Assembly (NCBI GenBank): GCA_965215195.1
Contig: CBDCDC010000002.1
Coordinates: 2,112,001 to 2,176,000 of the forward strand
DNA from: Candidatus Latescibacterota bacterium
GTDB taxonomy: Bacteria; Latescibacterota; UBA2968; UBA8231
Reading direction: 5' to 3'
DNA length: 64,000 nt
In this document: in pieces, positions 38,742-62,088 of the stretch
How the letters are laid out: each line of letters begins with the position of its first letter
Position numbering within the stretch: the stretch's first letter is position 1
Made by a program: the position numbers and the translations under genes
The notes under the pieces: generated by a model
Told to the model about the DNA's origin: nothing
The model's database searches: none
The model's input: the letters and a program-made list of their open reading frames with translations, nothing else

Positions 38742-39509
38742 TTACGGCAGCTTCGTCGTCTTTTTCGCTTGCACCTGTCCACCTATGTTGACCTTATAGA
38801 CATACACCCCGGCGGCCACGTCTCTGCCCGCCGCGTCGCGCCCATCCCACACAAACCGATGGCTCCCCGCCGCCAGCGGCCCCTGCCACACCTGCCGCAC
38901 CCGACGACCCAACACGTCGTAGAGTGCCAAGTGGACCCGTGCCTCGTCCGTCGCCAACGCAAGGGGAATCACCATCGCCGGATTAAACGGATTGGGATAG
39001 GCATTGCCCAGCCGATGTTGCGCCGGCCGCGCTGCCGCCGACGTCTGCACGGCGGTCGCGGTCGGTTGCTCCGCTTCCGAACAGGGCGTGGAGGAACACG
39101 CGCATTGCCAATAATCAAGGTCACCGTCCGCGTCATAGTAAAAAGTGCAGTACCGGTACGGCTTGGTCGAGTTAGAAGACCTCGCGCAACCACCAAAGTA
39201 GCTGCACTCCGTCTTTGGAGGGGGGCCGAGGAAAGCGCCGGCCTGCTCGGCCTCCGAGCGGGAGATGCAGTGGTACTCAAAGCTGCAGTCAAGGTGCTCT
39301 GTGCGGCACCGGATCGGCGTGTTCTCGTTCCGAGACTCGCATGAAACGTTGTACTCGCAGTCTTCATAAGCACTATCCCCGCACTTGTCGGCTTGGGCTT
39401 CCTTGTCCCCGAGCAGGACCACAAGCCCCGCAAGGGCGATGATAACCCACCCCTGCCGCATTGGGGCCAAGCCACTGGACGAGCCGATAAATTCACGCAA
39501 ACTGTTCAT
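38742..39509 (-). CDS. Secreted Cys-rich protein (two 6-Cys modules) with FlgD-CTD
   Basis: Leader MNSLREFIGSSSGLAPMRQGW...AQA/D, 12 Cys, SSTPCSEA linker, YPNPFNP...KKTTKLP; GGAGGTG SD. Confidence 0.85.
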   Translation of the reverse strand: MNSLREFIGSSSGLAPMRQGWVIIALAGLVVLLGDKEAQADKCGDSAYEDCEYNVSCESRNENTPIRCRTEHLDCSFEYHCISRSEAEQAGAFLGPPPKTECSYFGGCARSSNSTKPYRYCTFYYDADGDLDYWQCACSSTPCSEAEQPTATAVQTSAAARPAQHRLGNAYPNPFNPAMVIPLALATDEARVHLALYDVLGRRVRQVWQGPLAAGSHRFVWDGRDAAGRDVAAGVYVYKVNIGGQVQAKKTTKLP

Positions 39510-39527
39510 AATTCACCTCCCCTTCCC

Positions 39528-40334
39528 TCACGGCAGCTTCGTCGTCTTCTTGGCTTCTACCCATCTGTCGATTTCGACCTTGTAGATATACACCCCGGCG
39601 GCCACGTCTCTGCCCGCCGCGTCGCGACCATCCCACACAAACCGATGGCTCCCCGCCGCCAGCGGACCGTCCCAGACCTGCCGCACCCGACGACCCAACA
39701 CGTCGTAGAGTGCCAAGTGGACCCGTGCCTCGTCCGTTGCCAACGCAAGGGGAATCACCATCGCCGGATTAAACGGATTGGGATAGCTGTCGCCCAGCCG
39801 ATGCTGCACCGGCCGGCCCGCTGCCGACGTCAGAACCGCGGTCGGCGTTGGCACGGCCTCCGAACAGGGCGTGGACGAGCAGAGGCAACTTTCCCAAGTG
39901 TCGTTGTTAAAATGGTACGTGGTGCAGTGCCGGTACGGCTCGGTTGAGTTAAACTCCGCGCACTCGTCGTAATATCTGCAATAAGTCGTTTGGTCGGTTG
40001 CGGTCGTCGGCACGGCCTCCGAACAGGGCGTGGACGAGTACCAGCAATCTACTATGCCGAAGTCGCAGAGCATGTCCAAGGCATAGGTGCAGTAGAGGTA
40101 TTTCGCCTCCGGCTCGGCTGGATCTGCATCCGCCCGCGCACAAATTGGATGCTCGGAGTTGAAGCTACAGTCGAAACAATGGGTCCAGCTATCGTCACAG
40201 TAGGTCCGGGCGGGGTCGGCGTCGGCTCTGTTGATCCCGAACAGGACCACAAGCCCCGGGAGGGCGATTGCGACCCACTTCCGTAGCGGAGCCAAGCCGC
40301 TGGACGAGCCAATAAATGCACGCAACCTGTTCAT
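39528..40334 (-). CDS. Secreted Cys-rich protein (8+6 Cys modules) with FlgD-CTD
   Basis: Leader MNRLRAFIGSSSGLAPLRKW...ADA/D, 14 Cys, SSTPCSEAVPT twice, CTD. Confidence 0.85.
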   Translation of the reverse strand: MNRLRAFIGSSSGLAPLRKWVAIALPGLVVLFGINRADADPARTYCDDSWTHCFDCSFNSEHPICARADADPAEPEAKYLYCTYALDMLCDFGIVDCWYSSTPCSEAVPTTATDQTTYCRYYDECAEFNSTEPYRHCTTYHFNNDTWESCLCSSTPCSEAVPTPTAVLTSAAGRPVQHRLGDSYPNPFNPAMVIPLALATDEARVHLALYDVLGRRVRQVWDGPLAAGSHRFVWDGRDAAGRDVAAGVYIYKVEIDRWVEAKKTTKLP

Positions 40335-40346
40335 GGCTTCGTCTCC

Positions 40347-41375
40347 TTAATTGCCAGTCTGCTCTTGCAAATGGCGCTTGATCTGCCCCCACGAGGGCTC
40401 GGCCACGGCGGTCGGCTCCTCGCCGATATAAGACGCGAGGTCCCAGAACCGCACCAAGTAGGAGTGACTCGTGGCACTCGCCAGCGTACCTCCATCCGGC
40501 GAATACGCCACATCCGAGACGACATCCGTGTGCCCTTCGAGCGTGGTGAGCAGTTCCCCTGTCGCTACATCCCAAAGACGTATCGCGTTGCCATGCGCAC
40601 TAGCCAACGTGTGCCCATCCGGTGAATACGCCAAACCACCACCGCATCTACCTAGTCGTCCTTCAAGCGTGTTGGAGACTTCACCGGTCTCCACATCCCA
40701 AAGACGTATCGTTTGATCCCGACTCCCACTGACCAACGTGCGACCATCCGGTGAATACGATACATGAACGACCCCATCCGCGTGCCCTTCGAGCGTGGTG
40801 AGCAGTTCACCGGTCGCCGCGTCCCAAAGACGTATCGTCCGGTCGAAGCCCCCACTGGCCAGCGTACTGCCATCCGGTGAATACGATACATGAATGATAC
40901 CCTCCGTATGCCCTGTGAGTGTGTTGAGATGTTCACCCGTCGCCACATCCCAAAGGCGAATCGTTTGATCCCGACTCGCACTGGCTACCGCAGCCCCATC
41001 CGGTGAATACGAGACGCTAAAGACATCCTCCCTGTGCCCTCTCAGCGTAGTGCGGACTTCACCTGTGGTCGCGTCCCAAAGACGCACGGTTTCGTCGAAA
41101 CTCCCACTGGCCAGCGTGCGACCATCCGGTGAATACGCCACATCCCAGACCAGATCCGTGTGCCCTACGAGCGTGGTGCGGACTTTACCTGTCGCTGCAT
41201 CCCAAAGACGCACGGTTTCGTCGAAACTCGCACTGGCTACCGCGGCCCCGTCCGGCGAATACGCCACACTAGTAGTCCAGCTCGGTGCCCGGGCATAGCT
41301 GCCATCCGGCAAGCCCAAAGCGATCAAGCAGGCGACTAACACGAGACGGAATTGATGTACAACTCGCGTTTTCAT
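40347..41375 (-). CDS. Secreted WD40-repeat protein with C-terminal SWGxIK motif
   Basis: Signal peptide MKTRVV..., about 7 repeats of YSPDG.TLAS...D.TIRLWD..TG, tail PTAVAEPSWGQIK; AAGGAG SD. Confidence 0.9.
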   Translation of the reverse strand: MKTRVVHQFRLVLVACLIALGLPDGSYARAPSWTTSVAYSPDGAAVASASFDETVRLWDAATGKVRTTLVGHTDLVWDVAYSPDGRTLASGSFDETVRLWDATTGEVRTTLRGHREDVFSVSYSPDGAAVASASRDQTIRLWDVATGEHLNTLTGHTEGIIHVSYSPDGSTLASGGFDRTIRLWDAATGELLTTLEGHADGVVHVSYSPDGRTLVSGSRDQTIRLWDVETGEVSNTLEGRLGRCGGGLAYSPDGHTLASAHGNAIRLWDVATGELLTTLEGHTDVVSDVAYSPDGGTLASATSHSYLVRFWDLASYIGEEPTAVAEPSWGQIKRHLQEQTGN

Positions 41376-41433
41376 AAGAAACTCCTTTCGGTGCGTTTTG
41401 AGGACTTTTTCACACGCCATTTTCAAACACTCC

Positions 41434-43611
41434 TTACGGCAGCTTCGTCGTCTTTTTCGCTTCCACCCGCCCATCCACTTCGACCTGATAGACATACACC
41501 CCGGCGGCCACCGCCTTGCCCGCCGCGTCGCGGCCATCCCACACAAACCGATGACTCCCCGCCCCCAACGGCCCCTGCCACACCTGCCGCACCCGACGAC
41601 CCAACACATCGTACACCGTCAGCGACACTCCCGCCGCGTCCGTTGCCAAGTCGAGGGGGATCACGACCGCCGGATTAAACGGATTGGGATAGCTGTCGCC
41701 CAGCCGATACTGCGCCGGCCGCCCGGCTGCGGTCGTCATCACCGCGGTCGCCTGCTCGCCCAACGAACTCTTGAGCAGATGCACCCCGCCCAAGATCGGA
41801 TCTAACACGACCAAATCGAGATCGCCATCGTTATCCATATCCCCGGACAGCACGTATCGCCCAGTACCCTCCAGACGATGCTTCTCTCCTTCTTGGGTAG
41901 GGTTGACACGCCCGCCCCATTCGACAAACACTCCAAAGCCCGAAGCGCGGTCTCCACCGATAAACACCCAGTCGTCCACCCCATCGGCGTTCAGATCGCG
42001 CATCAGCACCGGCGAGCGACGCAACAGCCGATCATCATACAGCACCTCCGCTTCTAAGCGGTCCCCGACGCTCTTCCGCTGCAAGACCAGCCCCTTGCTC
42101 CCTTCTATACCGACTGTGAGCTCGGTGAACAAATCCACCTGCCCATCGCCGTCAAAGGATGTGAGCTCGGTGAGGAAATCCACCTGCCCATCGCCATCAA
42201 AATCGCCCACCCCTAACAGCTTCACTCTCTCATCGAATTCAAAGATCTCGCCGCTCGGAACCTCGCCCAAGGCCCCCACAATCCACGTGCTCGCCCGCCC
42301 GGGGATCAGCCTCCACAACGCGTCAAGGACCCCATCGCCGGTAAAGTCGCCGATATGAGGGGGGGTATAGTCTTGGACTGCGGCTACCTCCTCAGAAGTC
42401 CACACGCCCTGTTCTACATCCCACACCGCTAACGTGCTAAAGAACGTCGCCGTACCCGCAATCGCCTCCTCGCGAGAGCCTTCAAACGTAGTCCTCCCGA
42501 CAAACAACTCAACCCGGCCATCGCCATCCCAATCCGCCACACTATGGATCGATCGGTCGATCTGCGCGAGCACCTCAACTTGGAGATCCGGCCCGATAGA
42601 CCACACTTCGGTCGAGGGCTCCCGGTTGCTTCTTGATAGCGCGATTTCGTCTTGCCCATCGCCCGTCAAATCAGCACCAAGCACCTTTAAGACCCCCCCT
42701 AAGACCCCCACTTCTTCTATAACAGGCCCGCGTTCCAAGGCCCCTCGTCCGTCATTGACGGCCATCAGCCAACCCGCTTTAGACTCACGCCCCTGCGGTA
42801 TTTCCGTTTCCGTTTTCCAGAGACCAAACAGGTCTAAGTCGCCATCGCCATCCAAGTCCGTCAACACGCCGCCCCCCCTATCCCCTAGATACCTATTCCC
42901 TCCAATAGGTGCTTCCCCTATCCCCGGCGCAATCGGATAGAACGCCGGCGGGGCAAAAAGGCCGGCTCCAGCAAAGCCAAAGTAAGACTCTACGGATGGC
43001 GGCGGCCGTTCCCCCTCAAGCATCTCTTCCACGCCGGTCAACTCGATCCAGTCAATCTCAAACGACTCGACCACCCTAGGCGCGGTATCCTTACCAAAAT
43101 CCAGTACAAAACCTAGCCGCATATTTTTTAACAGGCCCTCCCATCTGCTGTGACCCGCCAAGGACAGCACCATTTCCTGCCACTCGGTGGTATAGACTAG
43201 TTGTTTTATGGTGTTTTCTTCTGTATCAAGATCAGTAGCAATATTAAGATAAAAACCTGAAGCGTTCTCCCACTCAATGGAAAAAACACCTTCTGTCGGG
43301 CGGTCATGGATGGTGCGGAACCGGACGCGGACTTGATCGAACAGACCCGAATCGTACCCGATGGTCGAAGAAACCACCTCGACACCCGGACTGGAGGCGT
43401 ACAAACTATTAGTGACGGCGGGATCGACCCGGATCCGCCACACGCCGTCTTCAACCACCCCCGGAAACTGGTGAAATTCACGCGTACCACCCCATATAAG
43501 AGCTTCTTTAGTGGTCCACCCTTGCGTCGTCCCATCGTCGAAATCCCACCGGATCGCCTCGGCGGAACCGCTCCATAGCACAACGCCTGCAACAACGGCG
43601 AACCTCAGCAT
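41434..43611 (-). CDS. Secreted FG-GAP/FlgD-CTD protein, paralog 3
   Basis: Same architecture. Confidence 0.88.
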   Translation of the reverse strand: MLRFAVVAGVVLWSGSAEAIRWDFDDGTTQGWTTKEALIWGGTREFHQFPGVVEDGVWRIRVDPAVTNSLYASSPGVEVVSSTIGYDSGLFDQVRVRFRTIHDRPTEGVFSIEWENASGFYLNIATDLDTEENTIKQLVYTTEWQEMVLSLAGHSRWEGLLKNMRLGFVLDFGKDTAPRVVESFEIDWIELTGVEEMLEGERPPPSVESYFGFAGAGLFAPPAFYPIAPGIGEAPIGGNRYLGDRGGGVLTDLDGDGDLDLFGLWKTETEIPQGRESKAGWLMAVNDGRGALERGPVIEEVGVLGGVLKVLGADLTGDGQDEIALSRSNREPSTEVWSIGPDLQVEVLAQIDRSIHSVADWDGDGRVELFVGRTTFEGSREEAIAGTATFFSTLAVWDVEQGVWTSEEVAAVQDYTPPHIGDFTGDGVLDALWRLIPGRASTWIVGALGEVPSGEIFEFDERVKLLGVGDFDGDGQVDFLTELTSFDGDGQVDLFTELTVGIEGSKGLVLQRKSVGDRLEAEVLYDDRLLRRSPVLMRDLNADGVDDWVFIGGDRASGFGVFVEWGGRVNPTQEGEKHRLEGTGRYVLSGDMDNDGDLDLVVLDPILGGVHLLKSSLGEQATAVMTTAAGRPAQYRLGDSYPNPFNPAVVIPLDLATDAAGVSLTVYDVLGRRVRQVWQGPLGAGSHRFVWDGRDAAGKAVAAGVYVYQVEVDGRVEAKKTTKLP

Positions 43612-43623
43612 GATACCACCTCC

Positions 43624-45795
43624 TCACGGCAGCTTCGTCGTCTTTTTCGCTTCCACCTGCCCATCCACTTCGACCTTATAGACATACACCCCAGCGGCCA
43701 CGTCTCTGCCCACCGCGTCGCGACCATCCCACACAAACCGATGACTGCCCGCCGCCAGCGGCCCCCGCCACACCTGCCGCACCCGACGACCCAACACGTC
43801 GTACACCGTCAGCGACACCTCTGCCGCGTCCGTCGCCAAATCGAGGGGCAGCACCACCGCCGGATTGAACGGATTGGGATAGCTGTCGCCCAGCCGATGT
43901 TGCACCGGCCGCGCTGCCGCTGGCGTCATCACCGCCGTCGCCTGCTCGCCCAGCGAACTCTTGAGCAGATGCACTCCACCCAAGATCGGATCCAACACCA
44001 CCAAGTCGAGATCGCCGTCGCCATCCATATCCCCGCAGAGCACGTATCGCCCAGTACCCTCCAGCCGATGCCGCTCCCCGGCTTGAGTAGGATTGACACG
44101 CCCGCCCCATTCGACAAACACCCCAAAGCCTGAGACGCGATCCCCACCGATAAACACCCAGTCGTCCACCCCATCGGCGTTGAGGTCGCGCACCAGCACC
44201 GGCGAGCGCCGCAACAGCCGATCATCATACAGCACCTCCGCTTCGAGGCGGTCCCCGACGCTCTTCCGCTGCAAGACCAGCCCCTTGCTCCCTTCGATTA
44301 GATGTGGATCTGATATGAACTCCGTGAGGAAATCCACCTGCCCATCGCCGTCAAAATCGCCCACCTCTAACAGCTTCGGCTCCCCCCCTTCATCGAACTC
44401 AAACAGCTCGCCGCTCTGCAACTCCCCACCCAAGGCCCCCACAATCCACCTATCATTCGCCCACCTTCCGAGCGACTTCCATAACACGTCTAAGGTCCCA
44501 TCCCCAGTAAAGTCGCCGATGTGACGGGGCGTATAGTCTTTGGAAGCCGCCACCTCCTCGGCGGTCCACATGCCCTGTTTGACCTCCCAGACCACTAACG
44601 TGCTTGAAAGCTCCGCCGTACCCGCGATCATGTCCTCGAAAGAGCCTTCATGCGTAACCCCCCCGACAAATAATTCGACCCGGCCATCACCATCCCAATC
44701 CGCCACACTATGGACCGCTTTATCGATCTGCACGAGTACCTCGACTTGGAGGTCCGGCCCGATAGACCAAATCTCCGTCAAGTGGTGGCCTCTTGATATT
44801 GCGATCTCGTCTTTACCATCGCCGGTCAAATCAGCACCCATCACCGATAAAACCACCCCTGGGACGATCGTCCTGCCAGTTTCCGAATCTGTACTAGACC
44901 CCTCTGGGGGAGCTACCACCTCTAGGCGTCTCAGTTCCAAGGCCCCGCGCCCGTCATTGAGGGCCATCAGCCAGCCCACCACGTCAGCCCGCCCCAACTC
45001 GTCTGTGTCTGGAGCGTACTCCCAGAGGCCAAAAAGGTCTAAGTCGCTATCGCCATCCAAGTCCGTCAACACGTGGCCCCCGACCTCCCCTAGATACCCT
45101 GCTCTACGAGTTTCCCCGATCCCCGGCGCAATCGGATAGAACACCGGCCGGGCAAAAAGGCCGGCCCCAGCAAAGCTGAAGTAGTACTCTACCGGCGGCG
45201 GCGGCCGTTCCCCCGCTATCATCTCTTCCACGCCGGTCAACTCGATCCAGTCGATCTCAAACCACTCAACCATCTCGGTATCCAAATCAAAACCGAGTAC
45301 AAAACCGAGCTGAATGTTTTTTAACAGGCCCTCCCAGCCGTCTTGACCCGTCAAGGAGAACCCCACTTCCTGCCATTTGGTGGTATAGATTATTTTTTGG
45401 GGGAACACTTTAAATAAATTTTCTGGATCATCGGGATCGAAATAGGAAGAGTTTTCCCAATTGATCACAAAATTACCATACGTAGGGCGGTCATGGACGG
45501 TACGGAACCGAATGCGGACGTGGTCGAACAGAGCCGAATCGTACCCGATGGGAGAAGAAACCACTTCGACACTCGGCATGGAATGACGACTTTTGGTGAC
45601 GGAGGGAGAGACTGTGATCCGCCACACACCGTCTTCGACCACCCCCGGAAACTGGTGAAATTCACGCGTACCTCCCCATATAGTAGCTTCTTTAGCGGTC
45701 CACCCTTGCGTCGTCCCATCGTCGAAATCCCACTTGATCGCCTCGGCGGGGACGCTCCATAGCACAACGCCTGCAACAACGGCGAACCTCAGCAT
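43624..45795 (-). CDS. Secreted FG-GAP/FlgD-CTD protein, paralog 4
   Basis: Same architecture. Confidence 0.88.
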   Translation of the reverse strand: MLRFAVVAGVVLWSVPAEAIKWDFDDGTTQGWTAKEATIWGGTREFHQFPGVVEDGVWRITVSPSVTKSRHSMPSVEVVSSPIGYDSALFDHVRIRFRTVHDRPTYGNFVINWENSSYFDPDDPENLFKVFPQKIIYTTKWQEVGFSLTGQDGWEGLLKNIQLGFVLGFDLDTEMVEWFEIDWIELTGVEEMIAGERPPPPVEYYFSFAGAGLFARPVFYPIAPGIGETRRAGYLGEVGGHVLTDLDGDSDLDLFGLWEYAPDTDELGRADVVGWLMALNDGRGALELRRLEVVAPPEGSSTDSETGRTIVPGVVLSVMGADLTGDGKDEIAISRGHHLTEIWSIGPDLQVEVLVQIDKAVHSVADWDGDGRVELFVGGVTHEGSFEDMIAGTAELSSTLVVWEVKQGMWTAEEVAASKDYTPRHIGDFTGDGTLDVLWKSLGRWANDRWIVGALGGELQSGELFEFDEGGEPKLLEVGDFDGDGQVDFLTEFISDPHLIEGSKGLVLQRKSVGDRLEAEVLYDDRLLRRSPVLVRDLNADGVDDWVFIGGDRVSGFGVFVEWGGRVNPTQAGERHRLEGTGRYVLCGDMDGDGDLDLVVLDPILGGVHLLKSSLGEQATAVMTPAAARPVQHRLGDSYPNPFNPAVVLPLDLATDAAEVSLTVYDVLGRRVRQVWRGPLAAGSHRFVWDGRDAVGRDVAAGVYVYKVEVDGQVEAKKTTKLP

Positions 45796-45807
45796 GATAC
45801 CACCTCC

Positions 45808-47994
45808 TCAAGGCAGCTTCGTCGTCTTCTTCGCTTCCACTCGCCCATCCACTTCGACCCGATAGACATACACCCCAGCGGCCACGTCTCTGCCCGCCGC
45901 GTCGCGGCCATCCCACACGAACCGATGGCTCCCCGCGCGCAGCGGCCCCTGCCACACCGGCCGCACCCGACGACCTAACACGTCGTACACCGTCAGCGAC
46001 ACCCCGGCCGCGTCCGTCGCCAAGTCGAGGGGCAGCACCACCGCCGGATTAAACGGATTGGGATAGCTGTCGCCCAGCCAATGTCGCGCCGGCCGCGCTG
46101 CCGCTGGCGTCATCACCGCGGTCCTCTGCTCGTCCAGCGAACTCTTGAGCAGATGCACTCCACCCAAGATCGGATCCAACACCACCAAATCGAGATCGCC
46201 GTCGCCATCCATATCCCCGCAGAGCACGTCTCGCCCTGTGCCCGCCAGCCGATGCCGCTCTCCTCCTTGGGTCGGGTTGACACGCCCACCCCATTCGACG
46301 AACACCCCAAAGCCCGAAACGCGGTCCCCGCCGATAAACACCCAGTCGTCCACCCCATCGGCATTCAGATCGCGCACCACCAACGGCGAGCGTCGCAACA
46401 GCCGATCATCATACAGCACCTCCGCTTCTAAGCGGTCCCCGGTCCCCTTTCTCTGCAAGACGATCCCCTTGCTCCCTTCGATCAGATCAGATGCGAACTC
46501 GGTGAGGAAATCCACCTGTCCATCGCCGTCAAAATCGCCCACCCCTAACGGCTTCATCCCTTCGTCGAATTCAAAGGGCTCGCCGCTCGGAAACGCCGCG
46601 GTCTCGCTTGTCTGCAACGCCTTGCTCAAGTCCCCCACAATCCACCCTTTCGCCAGATCTCGGATCGGCGTCCAGAACACGTCTAAGGTCCCATCGCCGG
46701 TAAAGTCGCCGATATGAAGGGGCACATAGTCTTTGGAAGCCGCCATCTCCTCAGAAGTCCACACGCCCTGTTCGACCTCCCACATCGCTAACGTGCTTGA
46801 AAGCACCGCCGTACCCGCGATCATCTCCTCTAAAGTGCCTTCATACCTAGCCCCCCCGACAAATAATTCGACCCGGCCATCGCCATCCCAATCCGCCACA
46901 CTATGGACCGCTTTATCGATCTGCACGAGCACCTCGATTTGGAGATCCGCATCGATAGACCATACTTCGGTCGTGGGCTCCCGGTTGCTTCTTGATAGCG
47001 CGATCTCGTCTTGACCATCGCCGGTAAAATCAGCACTCATCGCCTCTAATCTCAACCGTGGGATGATAGCGGTACTACTCTCTGTGGGGGCTACTTCCTC
47101 TATGATAGGTCCCCGTTCCAAGGCCCCGCGCCCGTCATTGACGGCCATCAGCCAGCCACTTTTAGGCTCAAGCCCACGTTTCGTGCGCGTGTACGTATCC
47201 CAGAGGCCGAAAAGATCCAAGTCGCCATCGCCATCCAAATCCGTCAACGTGCTGCCCTCCCGCTCCCCTAGATACCCTCCGCCGAATCCTGCGGCGGCGG
47301 CTTCCCCTAAGCCCGGCGCAATCGGATAGAACACCGGCGGCGCAAACAGGCCAGTCGACTCAAAGCCAAAGTAGTACTCGACCAGCGGCGGCCGTTCTCC
47401 CTGGAGCATCTCCTCCACGCCGGTCAACTCGATCCAGTCGATCTCAAACCACTCGACAACCCCAGACTCGGTCGCCGGATCAATACCCAGATAAAAATCT
47501 AGCCGAATATTTTTTAACTGGCCTTCCCATCTCCTATGATCAGCCAAGGAGACCACCATTTCCTGCCACTCGGTGGTATAGACTATTCGTTGGATGAGCA
47601 TTTCTTCTGAATCAGTATCATCATCAAGATTAGAATAAAAACCTGAAGCGTTTTCCCACTCGATCCAAAGAGAACCCTCCGTAGGGCGATCATGGACGGT
47701 GCGAAACCGGATGCGGATGTGGTCGAACAAGCTCGAATCGTACCCGATGGTCGAAGAAACCAATCCGACACTCGAATTAGAGGACAAACTCTTGGTGACG
47801 GCGGGAGAGACCGCGATTCGCCACACGCCGTCTTCAACTACCCCTAAGAACTGGTTAAACTCACGCGTACGACCCCTTGTATTCGTTTCTTTGGTGGTCC
47901 ATCCCTGCGTCGTCCCATCGTCGAAATCCCACTTGATCGCCTCGGCGGGATCGCCCCATAGCACCACGCATACAATAACGGCTAGCTTCAACAT
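45808..47994 (-). CDS. Secreted FG-GAP/FlgD-CTD protein, paralog 5
   Basis: Same architecture; start refined to MLKLAV after AGGAG. Confidence 0.88.
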
Positions 47995-48112
47995 GAGACC
48001 ACATCTCCTGTCCAACAGGTAAAATTCCGACCGACCGCGTACTATCCGTGCAGAAAAAAAAGAGCACCGGCTTAATCACTGACGTTACGCAGTTTTCCAG
48101 AAAATGCTGCCT

Positions 48113-48220
48113 TTCGTCCAAAAAGAGGGTGCCGCCATCAGCCAGTTCAAAGCACCCGATCTGGCGGGTCGTTGCGCTGGTAAAAGCCCCTTTCTTGTGG
48201 CCGAACAATTCGCTCTCGAA
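48113..48220 (-). pseudogene. Internal fragment of a sigma-54-dependent activator (NtrC-type AAA+)
   Basis: [16 protein letters not shown]...[15 protein letters not shown] (GAFTGA-like loop through Walker B) with no flanking parts. Confidence 0.85.
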
Positions 48221-48228
48221 TGTAAACC

Positions 48229-49578
48229 TCACTCCGCATCAACTAATTGCCGTGCCAGCGATCCCTCCCGCGTCAGGGCGTACACCAAGAGATTCACCCC
48301 TAAATTATACACCAACGGCTCCTCGGCACCGGCCAGAATCGAGTGGTTGCTCGCGCCATACCTCAAAGACCAATTCATCATCTCCTGACCGATACCCGCC
48401 CAAAAATCCGCATAGCCGCGCATCGAATACACTCCCACCAACTGATCCCCAACGACGATGCCCTCCAAATAGTCCGGGGTACGGGGCGGGTAGTCTTGTC
48501 CGCCATTTACAAAGTGCATATCGCGGGCCCCCCGCGGCAGGCTGTTTATATCGTAGAAGCAGTGATAGAGCGGATGGCTTAGCTCCAGCCGGGTGAACCG
48601 CCAGTCCTTCCATTCTTGATAGCCCACCGCTTGCAAGCTGGCGCGAATGAGCGAACGCACCGTCGGCAGGTCTAATTCGGCGTCGCTGTAATCAGGCCGC
48701 AAGGGGCGGAGAATATCCACATACAGGAAGCCGCCGCCGGTCAAATACCCCCCTAAATTGGCCGCCTCGCTGTCGGTAAACTCAAAGGGGAGGTTGACGG
48801 TCAGCAGTACGAAAGGCACCTGCAAAAGCTGGGGATCATCCAGCGGAACCGCGTCGCGTACCTCAACGTGAACCTGCGTCTTGGCGATCATCTCATCGGC
48901 CAACCCTTGCAGCATCCGCCGCTCAACCATTTGGTGCGGCATCTGGTGATACCACCAGCGCACTTGCATATTTCTGGCCAGTCTGCTGTTTTCAGCTTGG
49001 TTGATGGACGGGCTGTAGAGGCCGGACATATAGAGGAACCCCTTGAGCTTGCGCCGGTCTTGGGGATCGACGACCACCATCGCCCGGTGCTGGCCGGTGT
49101 CCATCGCCTGCACATCCATCAGCTCCAACGCCAAGTCAATCTCATCGGCCCCTTGCCGCGTCCCTTCCAACGCCCCAGCCTGCATCTGCGGACCAATGTG
49201 CCGAGCGGGGAAGTCCGGCACGGGCAGCACCAGCCGATCCGGCAGCGATGCCGACGGCAGCCGCAGAGCCGATGTTTTGAACACCGGCAGGGGACGCGAT
49301 GCCGAGGGGGCCGGCCGCATCGCTACGACCGGAGCCGCTTGCAGGGCGGCGCGGCGCACCAACGGACGCTGTTGGGGCCGCTGCCGCCGGGCGAGGGTGC
49401 GTGGCAGCGGGCGCTTCTTGGTAAACTTCACCATGATCGGCGGTTGCACGGGAAAGTGAGTGACCCGCTCATGGCGTGGGAGTCCGAAGATCACCAGCAG
49501 ATGCAAGGCCAGCGACAAGGCCAAGCAGCTTTGCAGCTTTCTATTTCTTTGGAATGGGACTTTCCACGGCCGTTTCAT
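48229..49578 (-). CDS. DUF4159-domain protein with TonB-like anchor, copy 2
   Basis: Paralog of 32396-33742; ATGA overlap with GT2. Confidence 0.8.
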
Positions 49579-50624
49579 CGGCTCCCGTCCTTTCGCAAAG
49601 GATGGAGATCGAGCATTAACGTCCGCTCCGCCATTTCTTCGCTCGAAATGGTCTGATGCGTTTCGTGAAACGCCATCAGGCTAGGGAGGCGCATCTCCTC
49701 TGGAATCAGGCGGTCCGGCCATATAGAGGCAAACCAAAATTCAATCAGGTATAGTCGCGGATCCTCGTTCTTCTCCACCATGTGGGCGATAGCCCTACGC
49801 CGTTTTTGCGATTCTGCGAACGCATTTTGGGGGCTAAAAAAATCGTGATGATGATACAGGTGATAGCTCTGCGCCTTGGTGGCAAAGCGCATGTTGCAGC
49901 CATTCCGCATGAGGCGATAGGCCAAATCCCATCCTTCAGAATGGAGCATCTCTTCGTCAAACCCACCGACCTCCTCAAGAGCAACACGCGGAGCCGAAGC
50001 ATTGTGCGGATAAAAACTGATCCAACCGATCGGCGAATCAGGCACTTGGTTAAAGAGCAGTTGTACTTGGTCTTGCATTAGTTTTAATTCTGGGAAGGGA
50101 TATCCTCCCTCTTCGGCTAGTGGATCAATCGCGCCGAAATCAGACTGTACCATGGTCTCTGACACCCGAAATTCGTCTGGGTGCGTCCGCATAATCTGAG
50201 CAACCGAGGCCGGAACGTCCTCCCAAGGAAGGCCACTGTGCGGGTCTTGGACGTATTCCAAGCGGGGCAAGCAATACTGGAACCCGCTCGTTACGCCGGT
50301 GTAGCGCTGAAATAGGTGCCAATGTTGGGCTAACCAATCGGGACCCGGTAGCGCGTCGCCATCCAAGAAAGCAACTATGTCTCCCCGCGCTTCCGCTATA
50401 CCGATATTCCGCGCTCGACAGCGTCCGACATTCGTATGCAAGGGAATGACTTTTATGGGCATGTGCTCATACTCACGCAGAAAGTCCCCTGTTCCGTCCG
50501 TGCTGCCATCGTCCACCACGATAACCTCAAACGGGCCGGAGAATGTCTGAACAGCCAAGCCGCTTAAAACAAGCCGCAACCGATCGCGCTGATTGTGTGC
50601 GGCGATGACGACAGAAATATCCAT
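49575..50624 (-). CDS. Glycosyltransferase family 2, copy 1
   Basis: ISVVIAAHN, VIVVDDGSTDGT, ARNIGI, FLDGD, GGFDE. Confidence 0.9.
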   Translation of the reverse strand: MDISVVIAAHNQRDRLRLVLSGLAVQTFSGPFEVIVVDDGSTDGTGDFLREYEHMPIKVIPLHTNVGRCRARNIGIAEARGDIVAFLDGDALPGPDWLAQHWHLFQRYTGVTSGFQYCLPRLEYVQDPHSGLPWEDVPASVAQIMRTHPDEFRVSETMVQSDFGAIDPLAEEGGYPFPELKLMQDQVQLLFNQVPDSPIGWISFYPHNASAPRVALEEVGGFDEEMLHSEGWDLAYRLMRNGCNMRFATKAQSYHLYHHHDFFSPQNAFAESQKRRRAIAHMVEKNEDPRLYLIEFWFASIWPDRLIPEEMRLPSLMAFHETHQTISSEEMAERTLMLDLHPLRKDGSR

Positions 50625-50637
50625 TGAACTAGCTCCC

Positions 50638-50806
50638 TTATATACATTCAAAAATTAAGCGGCACTCTTCTCTCAGAGAGTCCGGTCGATGAATGTGGGG
50701 AAGCCCACTATCCGTCTCTTCATACACCATGGCTTGTGGCACTTCCTTGACAGCGTTGGAGCATACAATGTGGAAGCAGTCCAAGTGGCCAAAGAAAAAG
50801 TCAAAA
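50638..50806 (-). pseudogene. 3' remnant of the GT-B/transglutaminase gene
   Basis: FFGHLDCFHIVCSNAVKEVPQAMVYEETDSGLPHIHRPDSLREECRLIFECI* matches the C-terminus of 62089-64000. Confidence 0.85.
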
Positions 50807-50809
50807 ATA

Positions 50810-50880
50810 ATGGATGCTTAGGCTATCCCATGCCGTCTTATCCTCGTTCGAGTCAAATAGCTCAAAAGAATGTCCTCTTA
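50810..50880. repeat. Diverged copy of the conserved ~70-bp block, without the REP/MITE insert
   Basis: atggatgcttaggctatcccatgccgtcttatcctcgttcgagtcaaatagctcaa directly abutting the KKTTKLP stop. Confidence 0.75.
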
Positions 50881-52983
50881 CGGCAGCTTGGTCGTCTTTT
50901 TTGTTTGCACCTGTCCGTCGATGTCGACCCGATAGACATACACCCCGGCGGCCACGTCTTTGCCCGCCGCGTCGCGGCCATCCCATACAAACCGATGACT
51001 CCCCGCCCCCAGCGGACCGTCCCATACCTGCCGCACCCGACGACCCAACACATCGTACACCGTCAGCGACACCTCCGCCGCGTCCTTTGCCAAATCAAGG
51101 GGCAGCACCACCGCTGGATTAAACGGATTGGGATAGCTGTCGCCCAGCCGATGTTGCACCGGCCGCGCTGCCGCAGGCGTCATCACCGCCGTCGCCTGCT
51201 CGTCCAGCGAATTCTTGAGCAGATGCACTCCACCCAAGATCGGATCTAACACGACCAAATCGAGATCGCCGTCGCCATCCATATCCCCCGACAGCACGTG
51301 GCTCCCACTGCCCTCCAAACGATGCCGCTCCCCGGCTTGAGTCGGGTTGACACTCCCTCCCCATTCGACAAACACCCCAAAGCCCGAAGCCCGGTCTCCG
51401 CCGATAAACACCCAGTCGTCCACCCCATCGGCGTTGAGGTCGCGCACCACCAACGGCGAGCGCAGAAACAGCCGATCATCATACAGCACCGCCGCTCCTA
51501 CGCGGTCCCCGGCCTTCTTGCTATACAAGGCTAGCCCTTTGCTCCCTTCGATTTGGTTATATATGAACTCGGTGAGAAAATCCACCTGTCCATCGCCATC
51601 AAAGTCGCCCACCCCTAACAGCCACCGCTTCCATTCATTGAATTCAAACATCTCGTTTCTCGGAAGGTCCTCGCCCAAGACGCCCACAGCCCACGTGTTC
51701 GCCCGCCCGAATATCGGCGTCCACACCACGTCGAGGATCCCATCGCCGGTAAAGTCGCCGATGGCGCGGGGCACATGGCGTTCGGCCGCTGCCACCTCCT
51801 CGGAGCTCCACACGCCCTGTTCGACATCCCAGACCGCTAACGTGCTTCCTTCTTCCAACGAAGACACTCCGACAAATAGTTCGACCCGGCCGTCGCCATC
51901 CCAATCCGCCACATCTCTGAGCCATCGGTTCTCAATCTGCACGAGCACCTCGACTTGAAGTTCCGGATCAATAGACCACACTTCTATCACCGTCTCAGCA
52001 CTGCTTACATACATCACGATTTCGTCTTGCCCATCGCCCGTCAAATCAGCCCCCATCGCCTCTAAGGTCACTGTTGGTCTAGTTGTGGCAACTACCTCCT
52101 CTATGCGCCCCAGTTCCAAGGTCCCGTGCCCGTCATTGAGGGCCACCAGCCAGCCCGCTATAGGCCCCCACACCTCCCTTTTTTGCAGGTGCTCATAGAG
52201 AGCGAACAGGTCTAAGTCGCCATCGCCCTCCAAGTCCGTCAACACGCCGGACCCAGCACTGGAGCGGATCCCTAAACCCGGGCTAATCGGATAGAACACC
52301 GGCGGCGCAAAAAGCCCGGCCCCCGCAAAGCCAAAGTACGCTACGTGCGGCGGGGGCAGTTCCCCCTCTAACAACTCTTCCACCCCGGTCAACTCGATCC
52401 AGTCCACCTCAAACCACCCCACCTCCTCGCCCGCCACCGGGGTTTCCTCTCGATCCAGTCCAAAATTGAGCTGAATATCTTTTAACAGGCCGTCCCATAT
52501 CTTCTCGTCTTGATCGGCCAAGGAGATCGTTACTTCCTGCCACTCGGTGGTATAGACTATGTCTTGGGAGAGAATGCCAAACCGGCTTCCAGACGGCGGC
52601 TCTTCGGGATCCCAACCGGAAGACAGGGCGTTGTGTTCATTGGTCCACTCCATCGAAAAAACGCCGACCGTAGGGCGATCATGGACGGTGCGGCAGCGGA
52701 TGCGGACGTGGTCGAACAGAGCCGAATCGTATCCAATGATCGAAGAAATCAATTCGACACTCGGCGTGAGATAATGACTTTTGACGACCGAGGGTGCAAC
52801 CGTGATCCGCCACACGCCGTCTTCGACCACACTTGGGAACAGGTATGCTTCACGCGGACCACCCCATATATAAGCTTCTTTGGCTGCCCACCCTTGCGTC
52901 GTCCCATCGTCGAAATCCCACTTGATCGCCTCGGCGGGGACGCTCCACAGCACAAGCCATACAACAACGGCGAATAGCAACAT
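50878..52983 (-). CDS. Secreted FG-GAP/FlgD-CTD protein, paralog 6
   Basis: Same architecture; 5' flank shared with paralog 5. Confidence 0.88.
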   Translation of the reverse strand: MLLFAVVVWLVLWSVPAEAIKWDFDDGTTQGWAAKEAYIWGGPREAYLFPSVVEDGVWRITVAPSVVKSHYLTPSVELISSIIGYDSALFDHVRIRCRTVHDRPTVGVFSMEWTNEHNALSSGWDPEEPPSGSRFGILSQDIVYTTEWQEVTISLADQDEKIWDGLLKDIQLNFGLDREETPVAGEEVGWFEVDWIELTGVEELLEGELPPPHVAYFGFAGAGLFAPPVFYPISPGLGIRSSAGSGVLTDLEGDGDLDLFALYEHLQKREVWGPIAGWLVALNDGHGTLELGRIEEVVATTRPTVTLEAMGADLTGDGQDEIVMYVSSAETVIEVWSIDPELQVEVLVQIENRWLRDVADWDGDGRVELFVGVSSLEEGSTLAVWDVEQGVWSSEEVAAAERHVPRAIGDFTGDGILDVVWTPIFGRANTWAVGVLGEDLPRNEMFEFNEWKRWLLGVGDFDGDGQVDFLTEFIYNQIEGSKGLALYSKKAGDRVGAAVLYDDRLFLRSPLVVRDLNADGVDDWVFIGGDRASGFGVFVEWGGSVNPTQAGERHRLEGSGSHVLSGDMDGDGDLDLVVLDPILGGVHLLKNSLDEQATAVMTPAAARPVQHRLGDSYPNPFNPAVVLPLDLAKDAAEVSLTVYDVLGRRVRQVWDGPLGAGSHRFVWDGRDAAGKDVAAGVYVYRVDIDGQVQTKKTTKLP

Positions 52984-53046
52984 GAGATCACAGTTCCTTT
53001 CCAACAGGTAAAATTCCGACCAGACCGTGTACTATCCGTGAAGTAC

Positions 53047-53094
53047 GAAAGGAAAAGAGGGCCGGCTTAATCGCTATGATTAAACCGGCCTCTT
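53047..53094 (-). terminator. Putative intrinsic terminator downstream of the Cys-rich peptide
   Basis: Imperfect stem aagagggccggcttaatc/gattaaaccggcctctt followed on the minus strand by a pyrimidine/T-rich tract. Confidence 0.5.
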
Positions 53095-53102
53095 ACACCT
53101 TA

Positions 53103-53247
53103 GAAGCTGTCTGAAAACCCCCGTCAGGCAACCTCAAGGGGCGTCAAGTGGCCTTCGCATCAAGCGTTTTTCATAGGGCGAGACGCTCTTGATCCTAGGC
53201 CTTTTTCTTCGCGCAAAGGACAGCACCCGGAGTTTTCAGACAGCTTC
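53103..53247. mobile_element. 145-bp MITE
   Basis: Perfect 16-bp TIR GAAGCTGTCTGAAAAC/GTTTTCAGACAGCTTC flanked on both sides by TTA (53100-102, 53248-250). Confidence 0.8.
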
Positions 53248-53259
53248 TTAGAACGGTTC

Positions 53260-53547
53260 TTAGGGAACACACTCGCAACGCAAAAAGAATAAGCTACAGT
53301 CTTCAAACTGTTCGTAATAGCAGCACCGGTTTGGTGCGTCACGATTCTTCCTTGCACATCCTGAGTTGTAGGGGCAATCATCGCTAAAAATGCGATGGTC
53401 GCACTCGTGATCGTCAGCTTTGACTTGCTTCGCCCCGAGCAGGATGGCGACCCCGGTGAGGGCGCTGATGACCCACCCGAGCCCCAACCCCTGCCGCATC
53501 GGAGCCAAGCCGCTCGACGACGTGAAGAATTCCCTCAAGCTATCCAT
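53260..53547 (-). CDS. Small secreted Cys-rich peptide (95 aa precursor, 8 Cys), no CTD
   Basis: AGGAGG SD; leader MDSLREFFTSSSGLAPMRQG...VKA/D homologous to 39509 and 40334; mature part DDHEC...CECVP. Confidence 0.8.
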   Translation of the reverse strand: MDSLREFFTSSSGLAPMRQGLGLGWVISALTGVAILLGAKQVKADDHECDHRIFSDDCPYNSGCARKNRDAPNRCCYYEQFEDCSLFFLRCECVP

Positions 53548-53690
53548 GCTTCTTTCCTCCTGATAACTCCAGTACCTCCGCGACCCCATGCCGCTACAAT
53601 ACTGGAAGTGAGCGTTGAGCAATGGCCGATACGAGTCCGTATTATCTCACCTCCTTTCGTCTGCATCGGCCTTGCCTTCGCGGAGTATAT

Positions 53691-53708
53691 ATGCAAGTTC
53701 CGTGCCAA
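53691..53708 (-). promoter_or_regulatory. Sigma-54 (-24/-12) promoter
   Basis: Minus strand TTGGCACGGAACTTGCAT matches TGGCACG-N4-TTGCW exactly. Confidence 0.85.
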
Positions 53709-53830
53709 CAAGCAGGCCACGCACAAAAAAATCCTTTAGGATGCACCTAAAGGATTGAAAAACATGATACTTAAAATTATGGAAAGGGTCTCTCTACGAT
53801 GCGCGGCCTCAGCCATTGGCGCAAGGCAGC

Positions 53831-53886
53831 ATACGATTTTCCGTATTTAATACGATTTTCCGTATCCTCAATACGATTTTCCGTAT
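53831..53886. promoter_or_regulatory. Three copies of the palindromic 16-mer ATACGATTTTCCGTAT (candidate enhancer/UAS)
   Basis: Identical copies at 53831, 53850 and 53871; ATACG-N6-CGTAT dyad; about 120-180 bp upstream of the sigma-54 site. Confidence 0.65.
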
Positions 53887-53960
53887 GCGCTGAGGCCCCA
53901 CCATCCCACTTTCGCTCCACAGCATTGAGGCGGGCGGAAGAAGCCGCGGGATAAACTTAT

Positions 53961-55078
53961 GGAATCTCTGATTAAGTTTTCTGGCGTATTCTTCCCTGAG
54001 CGGCTATTGTCTAAGGCAACGGAGCCGATGCGATGCACCAACTCCGTTGTTCCGATGAAGCCTATCCCCCTAAGAAGAAGACCACCCGTAAAGAACGCTT
54101 TCTGTCGGAGATGCATGACCTGTTACCGTGGCACGCTCTGCTCCAACCGATTGAGCAGAAGTATCCGAAACCGGGTAGGGGTCGGCGTCCGATTCCGGCG
54201 GCGGTGATGGGGCGGATTTACTTCCTGCAACAGTGGTATGGCTTGAGTGATCCGGCGATGGAAGACAGTCTGTATGATGTCGAAACGATGCGCCGCTTCG
54301 CGGGGGTGACGCTTGACCGCATTCCGGATGAGACGACGATCTGCAAGTTCCGCCACTTCTTGGAGAAGCATCGTTTGACGGAGGCCTTGTTTCAGCGTAC
54401 CGCACAGTATCTGTCGGCACGGGGTATGCTCGTCCGCGCGTGGACCCTCGTGGACGCGACGATCGTCCACGCGCCCACGTCGACGAAGAACCAAGCCCAG
54501 GCTCGGGACCCGCAGATGGGGTCTACGAAGCAGGGGACGACGTGGTATTTTGGCCTCAAAGCGCATGTGGGTAGTGATCTTCAGGGGCGGGTGCCTCGCG
54601 TCGTGGTGCCCTCGGCCTCGGGGCATGATTCGACGGGGATGGACGAGTGTTTGCATGGCCAAGAACAGGTCATCTATGGCGACAAAGCCCATGCCCGTGC
54701 CCAACGCCAAGCCGCCGCCGAATCGGATAGTATTCAGTGGCGGGTGCTTCGCAAAGCCCGCCGCCGCAAGAAGCTGACCGGGGCCGATCGTGCGTTCAAC
54801 CCAAAGAGCAACCGCGTCCGAGCCCGGGTCGAACATGCCTTTGGGGTCATCAAGCACCTGTGGGGCTATCGCAAAGTGCACTATCGCGGGTTGGCCAATT
54901 TCTATCTGGCGCGTAGCGCATTGGCCGCGAGGTAGGCCGCCGTCGGTCCCGAGGGGGGGATCGGGACGAGGAACGGGGAGAAAAACACCGGAAAAATAGA
55001 GCCCGGTGCCCATGTGGTACGGAATATAACACTCAGAGGTGGCTGTTAAATAAAAAAACTGACTTGATCAGAGGTTCC
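53961..55078 (+). mobile_element. IS5-family insertion sequence
   Basis: TIRs GGAATCTCTGATTAAGT (53961) and ACTTGATCAGAGGTTCC (55062-78); no matching target duplication. Confidence 0.88.
54033..54935 (+). CDS. IS5-family DDE transposase (probably degenerate C-terminus)
   Basis: TRKERFLSEM, IYFLQQWYGLSDPAMEDSLYD, IPDETTICKFRH, VDATI, WYFGLKAHVG, YGDKA, RARVEHAF. Confidence 0.9.
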   Translation: MHQLRCSDEAYPPKKKTTRKERFLSEMHDLLPWHALLQPIEQKYPKPGRGRRPIPAAVMGRIYFLQQWYGLSDPAMEDSLYDVETMRRFAGVTLDRIPDETTICKFRHFLEKHRLTEALFQRTAQYLSARGMLVRAWTLVDATIVHAPTSTKNQAQARDPQMGSTKQGTTWYFGLKAHVGSDLQGRVPRVVVPSASGHDSTGMDECLHGQEQVIYGDKAHARAQRQAAAESDSIQWRVLRKARRRKKLTGADRAFNPKSNRVRARVEHAFGVIKHLWGYRKVHYRGLANFYLARSALAAR

Positions 55079-57408: not shown

Positions 57409-57426
57409 AATCACTCACTTTCTCAC

Positions 57427-62075: not shown

Positions 62076-62088
62076 TTCGCTAGCTCCC

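Follow-up and report, generated by a model that had tools for sequence, protein, structure and literature searches.

The subject of this analysis is a set of three genes (38742-39509, 39528-40334 and 53260-53547) encoding cysteine-rich proteins with a common N-terminal leader. They lie in a 64,000-nucleotide (nt) stretch, here called the window, of a Candidatus Latescibacterota genome (6.13 Mb, 2 contigs, 95% complete). The three genes were confirmed to belong to an extensive and unnamed Latescibacterota family of secreted proteins that are small and rich in disulfides. It is proposed that the mature product is a Sec-exported, protease-processed and oxidatively folded miniprotein that acts as the variable subunit or ligand of a surface propeller exported by the type IX secretion system (T9SS), a reading that we place slightly above even odds, at a probability of about 0.55. 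Its best-supported parts are the family itself, the leader/core architecture, the control by sigma-54, and the linkage to a FlaK-type protease and thiol-disulfide enzymes. The least certain part is the role, which may lie in recognition or adhesion at the cell surface, or in an antimicrobial activity passed down from defensin-like ancestors.

The major data for the three genes were obtained from alignments and domain scans. All three open reading frames (ORFs) are present on the minus strand, and their leaders of 39 to 44 residues could be aligned with M1, L4, R5, F7, S10-S12, G13, L14, A15, P16, R18 and W21 invariant. The DNA similarity among them starts exactly at the ATG, upstream of which the DNA is unrelated, and each gene has its own Shine-Dalgarno box 6 to 9 nt before the ATG. 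For 53260-53547 the start is the ATG at 53547, internal to a longer ORF. The free core of this gene was aligned by BLASTP to both modules of 38742-39509, with expectation values (E) of 2e-4 for module 1 and 3e-4 for module 2. The second modules of the two tethered forms have a common motif ending CSSTPCSEA, and 39528-40334 is built of the leader, Cys-rich modules ending SSTPCSEA and a T9SS sorting domain. The sorting domain was assigned from TIGR04183 in 38742-39509 (29.9 bits, cut-off 23) and from FlgD_ig in both 38742-39509 and 39528-40334 (43.1 and 40.7 bits, respectively; cut-off 27), with Pfam Por_Secre_tail falling below its cut-off of 27 in each (21.4 and 17.6 bits). No family match was obtained for 53260-53547. 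The initial annotation, made from the letters alone, had described the common leader, even cysteine counts in all three genes, the likeness of the free peptide to module 1, the common second-module motif, and the coexistence of free and tethered forms, and each of these was reproduced. As a separate observation, a conserved (E)-x-N-S-T-x-P-Y-R in the second Cys module of both tethered forms, also seen in the related loci L005, L029 and L037, resembles a bacterial N-glycosylation sequon.

Across the family the leader comprises the N-terminal 39 to 57 residues. It consists of a conserved segment (..EF..S-S/E-S-G...P-R-x-G-L..W), a hydrophobic stretch of about 19 residues with a conserved basic residue and Gly just before it, and a small-x-small site of the AxA type. 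Two subfamilies were distinguished, namely sub1, the window type (MxSLREFxxSSSGLAPxRQGLGLGW...), and sub2 (MxSLTFVxEATLLAPLVEFATSxSGHVEPRQGLALGW...). As their final three residues, sub1 leaders have AEA, AAA or AKA and sub2 leaders AQA, TQA or GQA. Leader identity was 79% and core identity 32% among 40 free forms of sub1, where the commonest Cys count was 8 (26/40); the corresponding values for 121 free forms of sub2 were 84% and 36%, with Cys counts of 6 (65 forms), 4 (27) and 8 (21). None of these 161 leaders contained a Cys. Odd counts were found in 2/40 sub1 and 8/121 sub2 forms, some of these being visibly truncated entries. The pooled ratio of nonsynonymous to synonymous substitution rates (dN/dS) was 0.19 for the leader and 0.54 for the core (171 pairs from 19 relatives). 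The conserved leader and variable Cys core first described for the three genes extend to their relatives, the cores being fast-evolving. That the leader is translated and under purifying selection was deduced from this low dN/dS together with the start of conservation at the ATG and the largely synonymous nature of the leader nucleotide differences among the three window genes.

Further insight into the leader/core boundary was provided by two paralogous loci 20 kb apart, G000:C2:2165260-2165547 (which is 53260-53547) and 2185289-2185570 on the same contig. These are 97 to 100% identical from -315 to about +115, a stretch that takes in promoter, untranslated leader RNA and the first 38 codons of the leader. 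Identity then drops to about 45% from the leader/core junction through the core and the spacer, and returns to a high level where the downstream FG-GAP gene begins. The cores therefore behave as cassettes between conserved flanks, and the mosaic looks like the outcome of cassette exchange or of gene conversion limited to the flanks. A conserved signal or leader followed by a hypervariable mature region with an even number of Cys, in many paralogues per genome, is characteristic of the conotoxin superfamilies and of plant nodule-specific cysteine-rich (NCR) and defensin-like peptides. Conotoxins and NCR peptides are eukaryotic, made in the endoplasmic reticulum and without a dedicated intramembrane protease, whereas the genes studied here stand in bacterial operons with maturation enzymes.

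The possibility raised in the initial annotation that the three genes have no further relatives clearly fails. A hidden Markov model (HMM) of the leader gave 13 matches at E<0.01 among the 87,985 six-frame ORFs of the window's genome, a recurrence far beyond chance, corresponding to 12 genes and one 5' fragment. Seven of the genes encode free forms (91 to 118 amino acids); the other five carry a sorting domain in fusion. When 5.8 billion proteins were searched with a profile, 390 of 8000 scored candidates reached E<=0.01. Of these 390, none has a Pfam domain, and the few with a name are entered as 'hypothetical protein' from metagenome-assembled genomes. In an exhaustive HMMER search, 1.84 billion representatives yielded 172 clusters (50% identity, E<=1e-3). 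Of 39 loci encoding relatives in species-representative genomes, 38 are titled Latescibacterota or Latescibacteria and one Gemmatimonadota. Within the phylum, a broad profile detected the family in 37 of 168 genomes; the positive genomes come from 7 of the 49 genera, and a single genome holds as many as 20 copies. The family is also as unnamed as had been supposed, since no Pfam or NCBIfam model matches the peptides; relaxing the threshold to E<=10 yielded faint rows only, such as Gamma-thionin (E 0.082, one distant member), nec1, PHD_2 and similar. Two unnamed clusters in the ESM Atlas, mostly labelled Candidatus Poribacteria (scores 0.86 and 0.83), are to be taken as leads only.

The free peptide had been described as the first gene after a sigma-54 promoter. 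The -24/-12 element, TGGCACGGAACTTGC, was found exactly and is the sole exact match within the window. Such an element precedes the first free peptide in 21/22 related loci of the sub1 type, and in loci of the sub2 type it lies at the start of the protease gene in six and directly upstream of the peptide in three. These data show that the peptide genes are driven by sigma-54 promoters. Between the element and the ATG lies a conserved 5' untranslated region (UTR) whose long stem-loop, CCAGTAC...GCGGC-loop-GCCGC...GTACTGG, immediately precedes the Shine-Dalgarno box. The RNA is conserved across species, with compensatory changes in 4 of the 25 predicted pairs, and no Rfam family matched positions 53000-54100. 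Directly upstream of the sigma-54 element, at 53708-53760 on the minus strand, is a palindrome with a T-run (..CCTTTAGG-N5-CCTAAAGGATTTTTTTG), placed likewise in L022, L024, L029, L035, L037, L049 and L058, which has the appearance of an intrinsic terminator for the activator gene upstream. The sigma-54 activator itself stands at the head of the cassette (L018:1874-5017; L017:10088-13252) and has Reg_prop/Y_Y_Y propellers, with no hydrophobic segment or signal peptide. Propellers of this kind are usually periplasmic sensors. Since the protein has no hydrophobic segment, its sensor must read a cytoplasmic ligand.

A recurrent cassette emerged when five loci of the window's own genome were scanned with Pfam and NCBIfam and 39 related loci were labelled. 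It contains the activator, a protease of peptidase family A24, an FMN_bind-like protein, two thioredoxins and the peptide or peptides, together with genes for FG-GAP proteins with a sorting domain, transglutaminase-like proteins, family-2 glycosyltransferases (GT2), TPR proteins and DUF4159 proteins. The 39 loci, and a further 11 from other genera and families, were labelled with a fixed query panel, by which other genes could be missed. The window holds the downstream part of the island; a protease, thioredoxin, FMN_bind-like protein, tethered and free peptides and activator follow 4 to 13 kb past its right end.

The linked protease (372 to 385 amino acids) matched Peptidase_A24 (PF01478) at 30.7 to 35.0 bits against a cut-off of 26.5, and NCBIfam FlaK weakly (31 versus 330 bits). 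Residues D33 (YTDI..R.IP) and G92 and D93 (GDAKL) were invariant in 19/19 orthologues from distant genera. An AlphaFold model with a mean predicted local distance difference test (pLDDT) of 74.8 was superimposed by VIA-align on FlaK (3s0x_B) over 172 residues with a Z score of 12.5 and a root mean square deviation (rmsd) of 3.8 A. This was the sole chain of 48,161 with Z>=8, the next best reaching 7.3; Foldseek returned nothing for the model at E<=0.001 and so missed FlaK. On the strength of the motifs and the model, the linked protein is assigned as a FlaK-type GxGD (A24) membrane aspartyl protease with both catalytic Asp motifs intact. Its distribution follows that of the peptides closely. 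The protease was present in 31 of the 168 phylum genomes, all 31 of them peptide-positive, and in 0/131 peptide-negative genomes. These genome counts include relatives that are not independent of each other; at genus level, peptides and protease occur in the same 7/49 genera. Outside the window's genus, a leader-type ORF lies within 500 nt downstream on the same strand for 16/25 protease genes. These leaders are diverged (..F..S-E-S/T-G-x-V/A....G-L/F...W), again with a hydrophobic stretch and an AxA-type site, and the Cys-rich core usually ends CxC. In one locus from another family of the class (L061, G089:C1:4016153-4017136), three leader peptides stand in tandem directly 3' of the A24-like protease gene.

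An enzyme of this type, being the gene most tightly linked to the peptides, could indicate that they are type IV pilin- or archaellin-like subunits, which would lose only their N-terminal segment to the protease, keep the hydrophobic stretch and carry the Cys-rich head on a membrane-anchored or filament stalk. The coupling of a dedicated A24 protease to small precursors is known from class III signal peptides (FlaK, PibD, TadV, PilD), and in prepilin and archaellin precursors the conserved N-terminal segment likewise ends in a basic residue and Gly before a hydrophobic stretch. In pilin-type leaders the terminal Gly precedes about 20 hydrophobic residues, position +5 being Glu. No aligned member of the present family has Glu at +5, however, and the leader is much longer, with 20 to 35 conserved residues preceding the Gly. 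In each subfamily the hydrophobic stretch leads into a small-x-small site, and the cargo is a disulfide-rich miniprotein. Proteins bearing a T9SS sorting domain, which have to pass through a soluble intermediate in the periplasm, begin with this leader as well. Finally, no pilus assembly ATPase, platform or secretin was among the annotated neighbours at the five own-genome loci or the 39 + 11 panel-labelled loci. A pilin-like subunit is accordingly regarded as improbable. Another possible analogy is with eukaryotic signal peptide peptidase, a GxGD protease that clips remnant signal peptides. Here too a GxGD protease is linked to signal-peptide-like substrates, and setting free a conserved N-terminal fragment in the cytoplasm would be the parallel, although the eukaryotic enzyme belongs to family A22 rather than A24. 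To our knowledge, no signal-peptide-clipping role has been assigned to bacterial A24 enzymes.

The thiol-disulfide genes are as persistent as the protease, the FMN_bind-like gene and two thioredoxins being kept in the 11 cassettes fetched from other genera and families. The two thioredoxin-fold proteins have a single N-terminal membrane anchor and CSAC or CDAC, and CPYC, motifs. They gave ResA-like and AhpC/Redoxin matches, and one gave a weak match to TIGR01295, PedC_BrcD (E 0.0039). In class IIa bacteriocin operons (PedC/BrcD), a ribosomal disulfide peptide likewise lies beside a dedicated thioredoxin-fold protein, but those operons differ in that a double-glycine leader, C39-ABC exporter and recognised immunity gene are absent here, where export would be by Sec and T9SS. 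The FMN_bind-like gene encodes a small membrane-anchored CxxC protein with a GISGAT(F/R)S motif (L018:6446-7063, L017:5290-5880 and orthologues), which resembles the covalent-flavin site of RnfG/NqrC. The protein may serve the adjacent thioredoxins as a flavin-linked oxidant in the periplasm.

The initial annotation had also suggested that the peptides are modified by the neighbouring glycosyltransferase or transglutaminase. This was not supported, as nothing but proximity links the two enzymes to the peptides and both are absent from the 11 other-genus cassettes, in which the protease/thioredoxin set persists. The wider idea, that the products are precursors of RiPPs (peptides synthesised ribosomally and then modified post-translationally) with a core glycosylated or cross-linked by these enzymes, fits the leader/core logic. 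It also fits the recurrence of GT2 and transglutaminase-like genes in the island within the window's genus and the conserved E-x-N-S-T motif in the second module of the tethered forms. It is nevertheless judged quite improbable, because the leader has a Sec-type hydrophobic stretch and cleavage site, no STT3/PglB was found in the genome, and no RiPP-type enzyme (radical-SAM, YcaO, lanthipeptide or other) was found in Pfam scans of 45 + 16 + 12 neighbouring proteins. The neighbours recognised in those scans were only the protease, thioredoxins, FMN_bind-like, FG-GAP, GT2, transglutaminase-like, TPR and DUF4159 proteins.

The fold of the core was approached by modelling and by comparison with defensins. 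In the AlphaFold model of 53260-53547, residues 48-95 have a pLDDT of 74 to 86 and form short strands, a helix (62-67) and a hairpin (73-80/86-94). The best match among solved structures by VIA-align was the bacteriocin laterosporulin, a weak one (Z 3.1, rmsd 4.3 A, 43 residues), and Foldseek gave nothing at E<=0.001. Bacterial cis-defensins, which are also small secreted Cys-rich peptides, have been grouped into five classes, with 74 peptides from Proteobacteria, Acidobacteria and Actinobacteria, and are described by the expression C-x(2,18)-C-x3-C-x(2,12)-C-x(4,17)-C-x-C (PMC11561630). The words Latescibacter, prepilin, thioredoxin and gene cluster are absent from the main text of that paper. 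The expression was matched by 38/150 representatives of the wider family (shuffled mean 5.4, maximum 14). Furthermore, a profile of 21 defensin-like cores from other genera matched only defensins and scorpion toxins in the PDB, all 60 rows listed being defensins or toxins, including plectasin, with gamma-thionin the best (E 3.6e-4). The window's own cores do not match. The expression was found in 0/3 window genes, 0/40 sub1 and 0/123 sub2 free forms, the window-class core profile gave no relevant match in the PDB (best E 0.63, a zinc-finger protein), and hhalign of window-class against defensin-like cores of the same leader family gave a probability of 8.7%. With a defensin-like match in some cores and none in the window's, it was deduced that one leader carries several Cys frameworks, only some of them defensin-like.

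These data bear on the explanation that the peptides are stand-alone antimicrobial or signalling miniproteins, i.e., defensin-like bacteriocins, for which the leader would be no more than an elaborate export signal and the adjacency to FG-GAP genes would reflect co-regulation rather than binding. Besides the matches of the distant members and the laterosporulin hit, such an explanation draws on the other-genus cassettes that lack an FG-GAP gene. The lack of a defensin signature, PDB match or profile similarity in the window, sub1 and sub2 cores argues against it, as do the FG-GAP gene that follows 49/58 free forms, the complex prediction that was passed, and the hypervariable contacts, all described below. 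We consider it rather unlikely for the peptides of the window, though more credible than the pilin and RiPP explanations. The toxin-, inhibitor- or signal-like role suggested in the initial annotation is still a candidate; the data gained since favour a pairing with the FG-GAP propeller next door.

The proposed partner of the free peptide is the FG-GAP beta-propeller with a T9SS sorting domain encoded at 50878-53004. At the 39 loci, 49/58 free peptides are followed within 20 to 269 nt by such a gene, and tethered forms mostly by the FMN_bind-like gene; 53260-53547 obeys this adjacency rule, with 50878-53004 immediately downstream. A complex prediction for the core with residues 27-612 of the partner scored 0.78, and the best of three controls 0.01. 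This mark is reached by 58/80 solved complexes and 2/110 mismatched pairs, a calibration that holds roughly since custom alignments were used. The runs agreed in at least 58% of contacts, with a partner pLDDT of at least 76. In the predicted complex the peptide contributes about 40 of its 51 core residues to contacts with the N-terminal domain and with one or two loops of successive blades. In an alignment of 15 paralogues and orthologues of the propeller, the 52 predicted contact residues had a mean column entropy of 2.05 bits, a value reached by 0/5000 random sets, versus 0.86 for the other 534. The complex model supports binding of the peptide to the propeller, and the partnership is supported by gene order, the passed prediction and the variability pattern together, with the structural part resting on models.

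The same prediction bears on the explanation that the peptides are uncleaved type II membrane proteins, whose cytoplasmic tail talks to the regulator while the Cys-rich domain serves as an extracytoplasmic sensor. That the cytoplasmic segment and the hydrophobic stretch are so extremely conserved would suit such a protein, as would the adjoining cytoplasmic sigma-54 activator. However, an AxA-type site is conserved in every subfamily, fusions to T9SS sorting domains exist, and the predicted complex buries most of the core in a secreted partner. Retention in the membrane is considered very unlikely, and the least likely of the explanations weighed here. T9SS components are encoded in the genome, with SprA_N at 51.5 + 42.3 bits, over the cut-off, in a 1969-residue frame, and PorU (NF033707) at 628.6 bits (cut-off 420). 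By binding to its propeller, a free peptide could therefore leave the periplasm together with this partner. Both tethered genes and all FG-GAP neighbours resemble T9SS type A cargo in carrying the sorting domain; the free peptides have none, and their riding on a partner, as supposed here, would differ from the established T9SS routes.

Taken in order, the proposed steps are as follows. The precursor would be inserted by Sec, and the dedicated A24 protease would cleave the leader on the cytoplasmic side of the membrane, close to the conserved Gly that precedes the hydrophobic stretch. Signal peptidase I would then release the core at the AxA site, and the dedicated thioredoxins would form 3 to 5 disulfides, possibly being reoxidised via the flavoprotein. 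In the window's genus, the tethered forms 38742-39509 and 39528-40334 would be taken to the cell surface by virtue of the T9SS sorting domain that each carries. The free form would bind the FG-GAP protein encoded downstream, and would either leave or be displayed via the sorting domain of this partner. Peptide and propeller face would diversify together and give a polymorphic surface complex, with recognition or adhesion its likely use.

Several observations weigh against the miniprotein-propeller proposal. With regard to processing, most members have a Gly just ahead of the hydrophobic stretch, but 39528-40334 has none, and distant members do not all keep the R of PRxG. At E<=1e-20, 6/37 peptide-positive genomes have no A24-like gene, one of these genomes being 75% complete and five 94 to 98%. 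Because release after Sec export needs no protease at the cytoplasmic face, the role given to the protease is deduced from linkage only. The FMN_bind matches, obtained in 5/5 orthologues, were all below the cut-off (14.7 to 18.6 versus 22 bits). With regard to the partner, core similarity correlated with partner similarity for the interface residues (rho 0.63) as well as for the remainder (rho 0.68), and the partial correlation was only 0.29, with non-independent pairs. Much of this signal is explained by peptide and partner having been duplicated as one unit. Propeller-face loops are often variable in any case. The FG-GAP gene was found in 0/11 cassettes fetched from other genera and families, which makes the pairing lineage-specific. 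A search for longer fused forms, in itself weak evidence, found two, both of them sorting-domain fusions, and no peptide-propeller fusion.

A more elaborate version of the proposal was also considered. In this version, the leader fragment freed by the protease would be the ligand of the cytoplasmic activator, providing secretion-coupled feedback, and the hypervariable peptides and propeller faces would make up a combinatorial lock-and-key code at the surface by which self and non-self, or a host, are recognised. Cassettes exchanged between two conserved flanks, the leader and the beginning of the partner gene, would diversify this code. As part of it, the leader-clipping FlaK-type protease with its disulfide peptides would constitute a previously undescribed ribosomal-peptide system. 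The whole is speculative and probably not correct as it stands, being only a little more plausible than the pilin-like explanation. In the accessible parts of the literature on Latescibacter peptides, T9SS and FG-GAP proteins, bacterial defensins, and prepilin or GxGD proteases, no description of the system was found.

The coordinates of the features are collected in Table 1, including the remaining neighbours. The N-terminal halves of the four paralogous DUF4159 proteins of the window (32396-33742, 48229-49578, 57859-59205 and 59689-61026; 445 to 449 residues), which are interleaved with the FG-GAP genes, gave no family match. For the WD40 protein, the true start is probably a later Met before a signal-like stretch, as the listed start overlaps the preceding gene in another frame. 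A second insertion sequence (IS) transposase (HTH_32/DDE_3) was seen at L017:2091-3214, where related loci have the second thioredoxin gene.

Table 1. Features of the peptide system and its neighbourhood; positions are those of the window except where a contig is named.
Feature	Position	Strand	Remarks
Tethered form, 255 residues, 12 Cys	38742-39509	minus	leader residues 1-40 (nt 39390-39509), then two Cys-rich modules
T9SS type A sorting domain of 38742-39509	residues ~171-250	minus	TIGR04183, FlgD_ig
Tethered form, 268 residues, 14 Cys	39528-40334	minus	leader residues 1-39 (nt 40218-40334)
Free precursor, 95 residues, 8 Cys	53260-53547	minus	leader residues 1-44 (nt 53416-53547), ends VKA
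8-Cys core of free precursor	residues 45-95, nt 53263-53415	minus	51 residues
Conserved 5' UTR, ~135 nt	53548-53680 (wider stretch 53548-53690)	minus	covarying stem-loop; also in L002, L003, L021-L041
Sigma-54 -24/-12 element TGGCACGGAACTTGC	53693-53707	minus	exact; ~145 nt upstream of the ATG of 53260-53547
FG-GAP beta-propeller with T9SS sorting domain, predicted partner of free peptide	50878-53004	minus	Pfam, adjacency, complex prediction
A24-like protease	G000:C2:2180122-2181276		PF01478; just beyond window end
Two FG-GAP + T9SS sorting-domain paralogues	34081-36210, 36501-38729	minus	Pfam
WD40 repeat protein, six or more repeats	40347-41609	minus	between FG-GAP genes and tethered peptides
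Three FG-GAP + T9SS sorting-domain paralogues	41434-43611, 43624-45795, 45808-48015	minus	Pfam
DUF4159 protein	48229-49578	minus	recurrent in wider island
Family-2 glycosyltransferase	49575-50651	minus	recurrent in wider island
IS transposase (DDE_Tnp_1 / DUF772)	54033-54935	plus	just upstream of free-peptide promoter; not part of system
FG-GAP + sorting domain	55324-57414	minus	Pfam
Two DUF4159 proteins	57859-59205, 59689-61026	minus	Pfam
GT2	61023-62102	minus	Pfam
Transglutaminase-like protein	62089-63981	minus	stretch continues into canonical cassette past window end

If the proposal is correct, prepilin/preflagellin-type proteases would gain a substrate class beyond pilins and archaellins, namely secreted disulfide-rich miniproteins, and the cassette of leader, protease, two thioredoxins and flavoprotein would represent a toolkit for making disulfide-rich peptides in the Gram-negative periplasm. 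The family would also give bacteria an equivalent of the scheme seen in conotoxins and plant defensin-like peptides, in which a conserved signal is joined to a hypervariable core, and its cis-defensin-like distant members would widen the known bacterial range of that fold. For this uncultivated phylum, the peptide-propeller pairs would constitute a new polymorphic surface system exported by T9SS.

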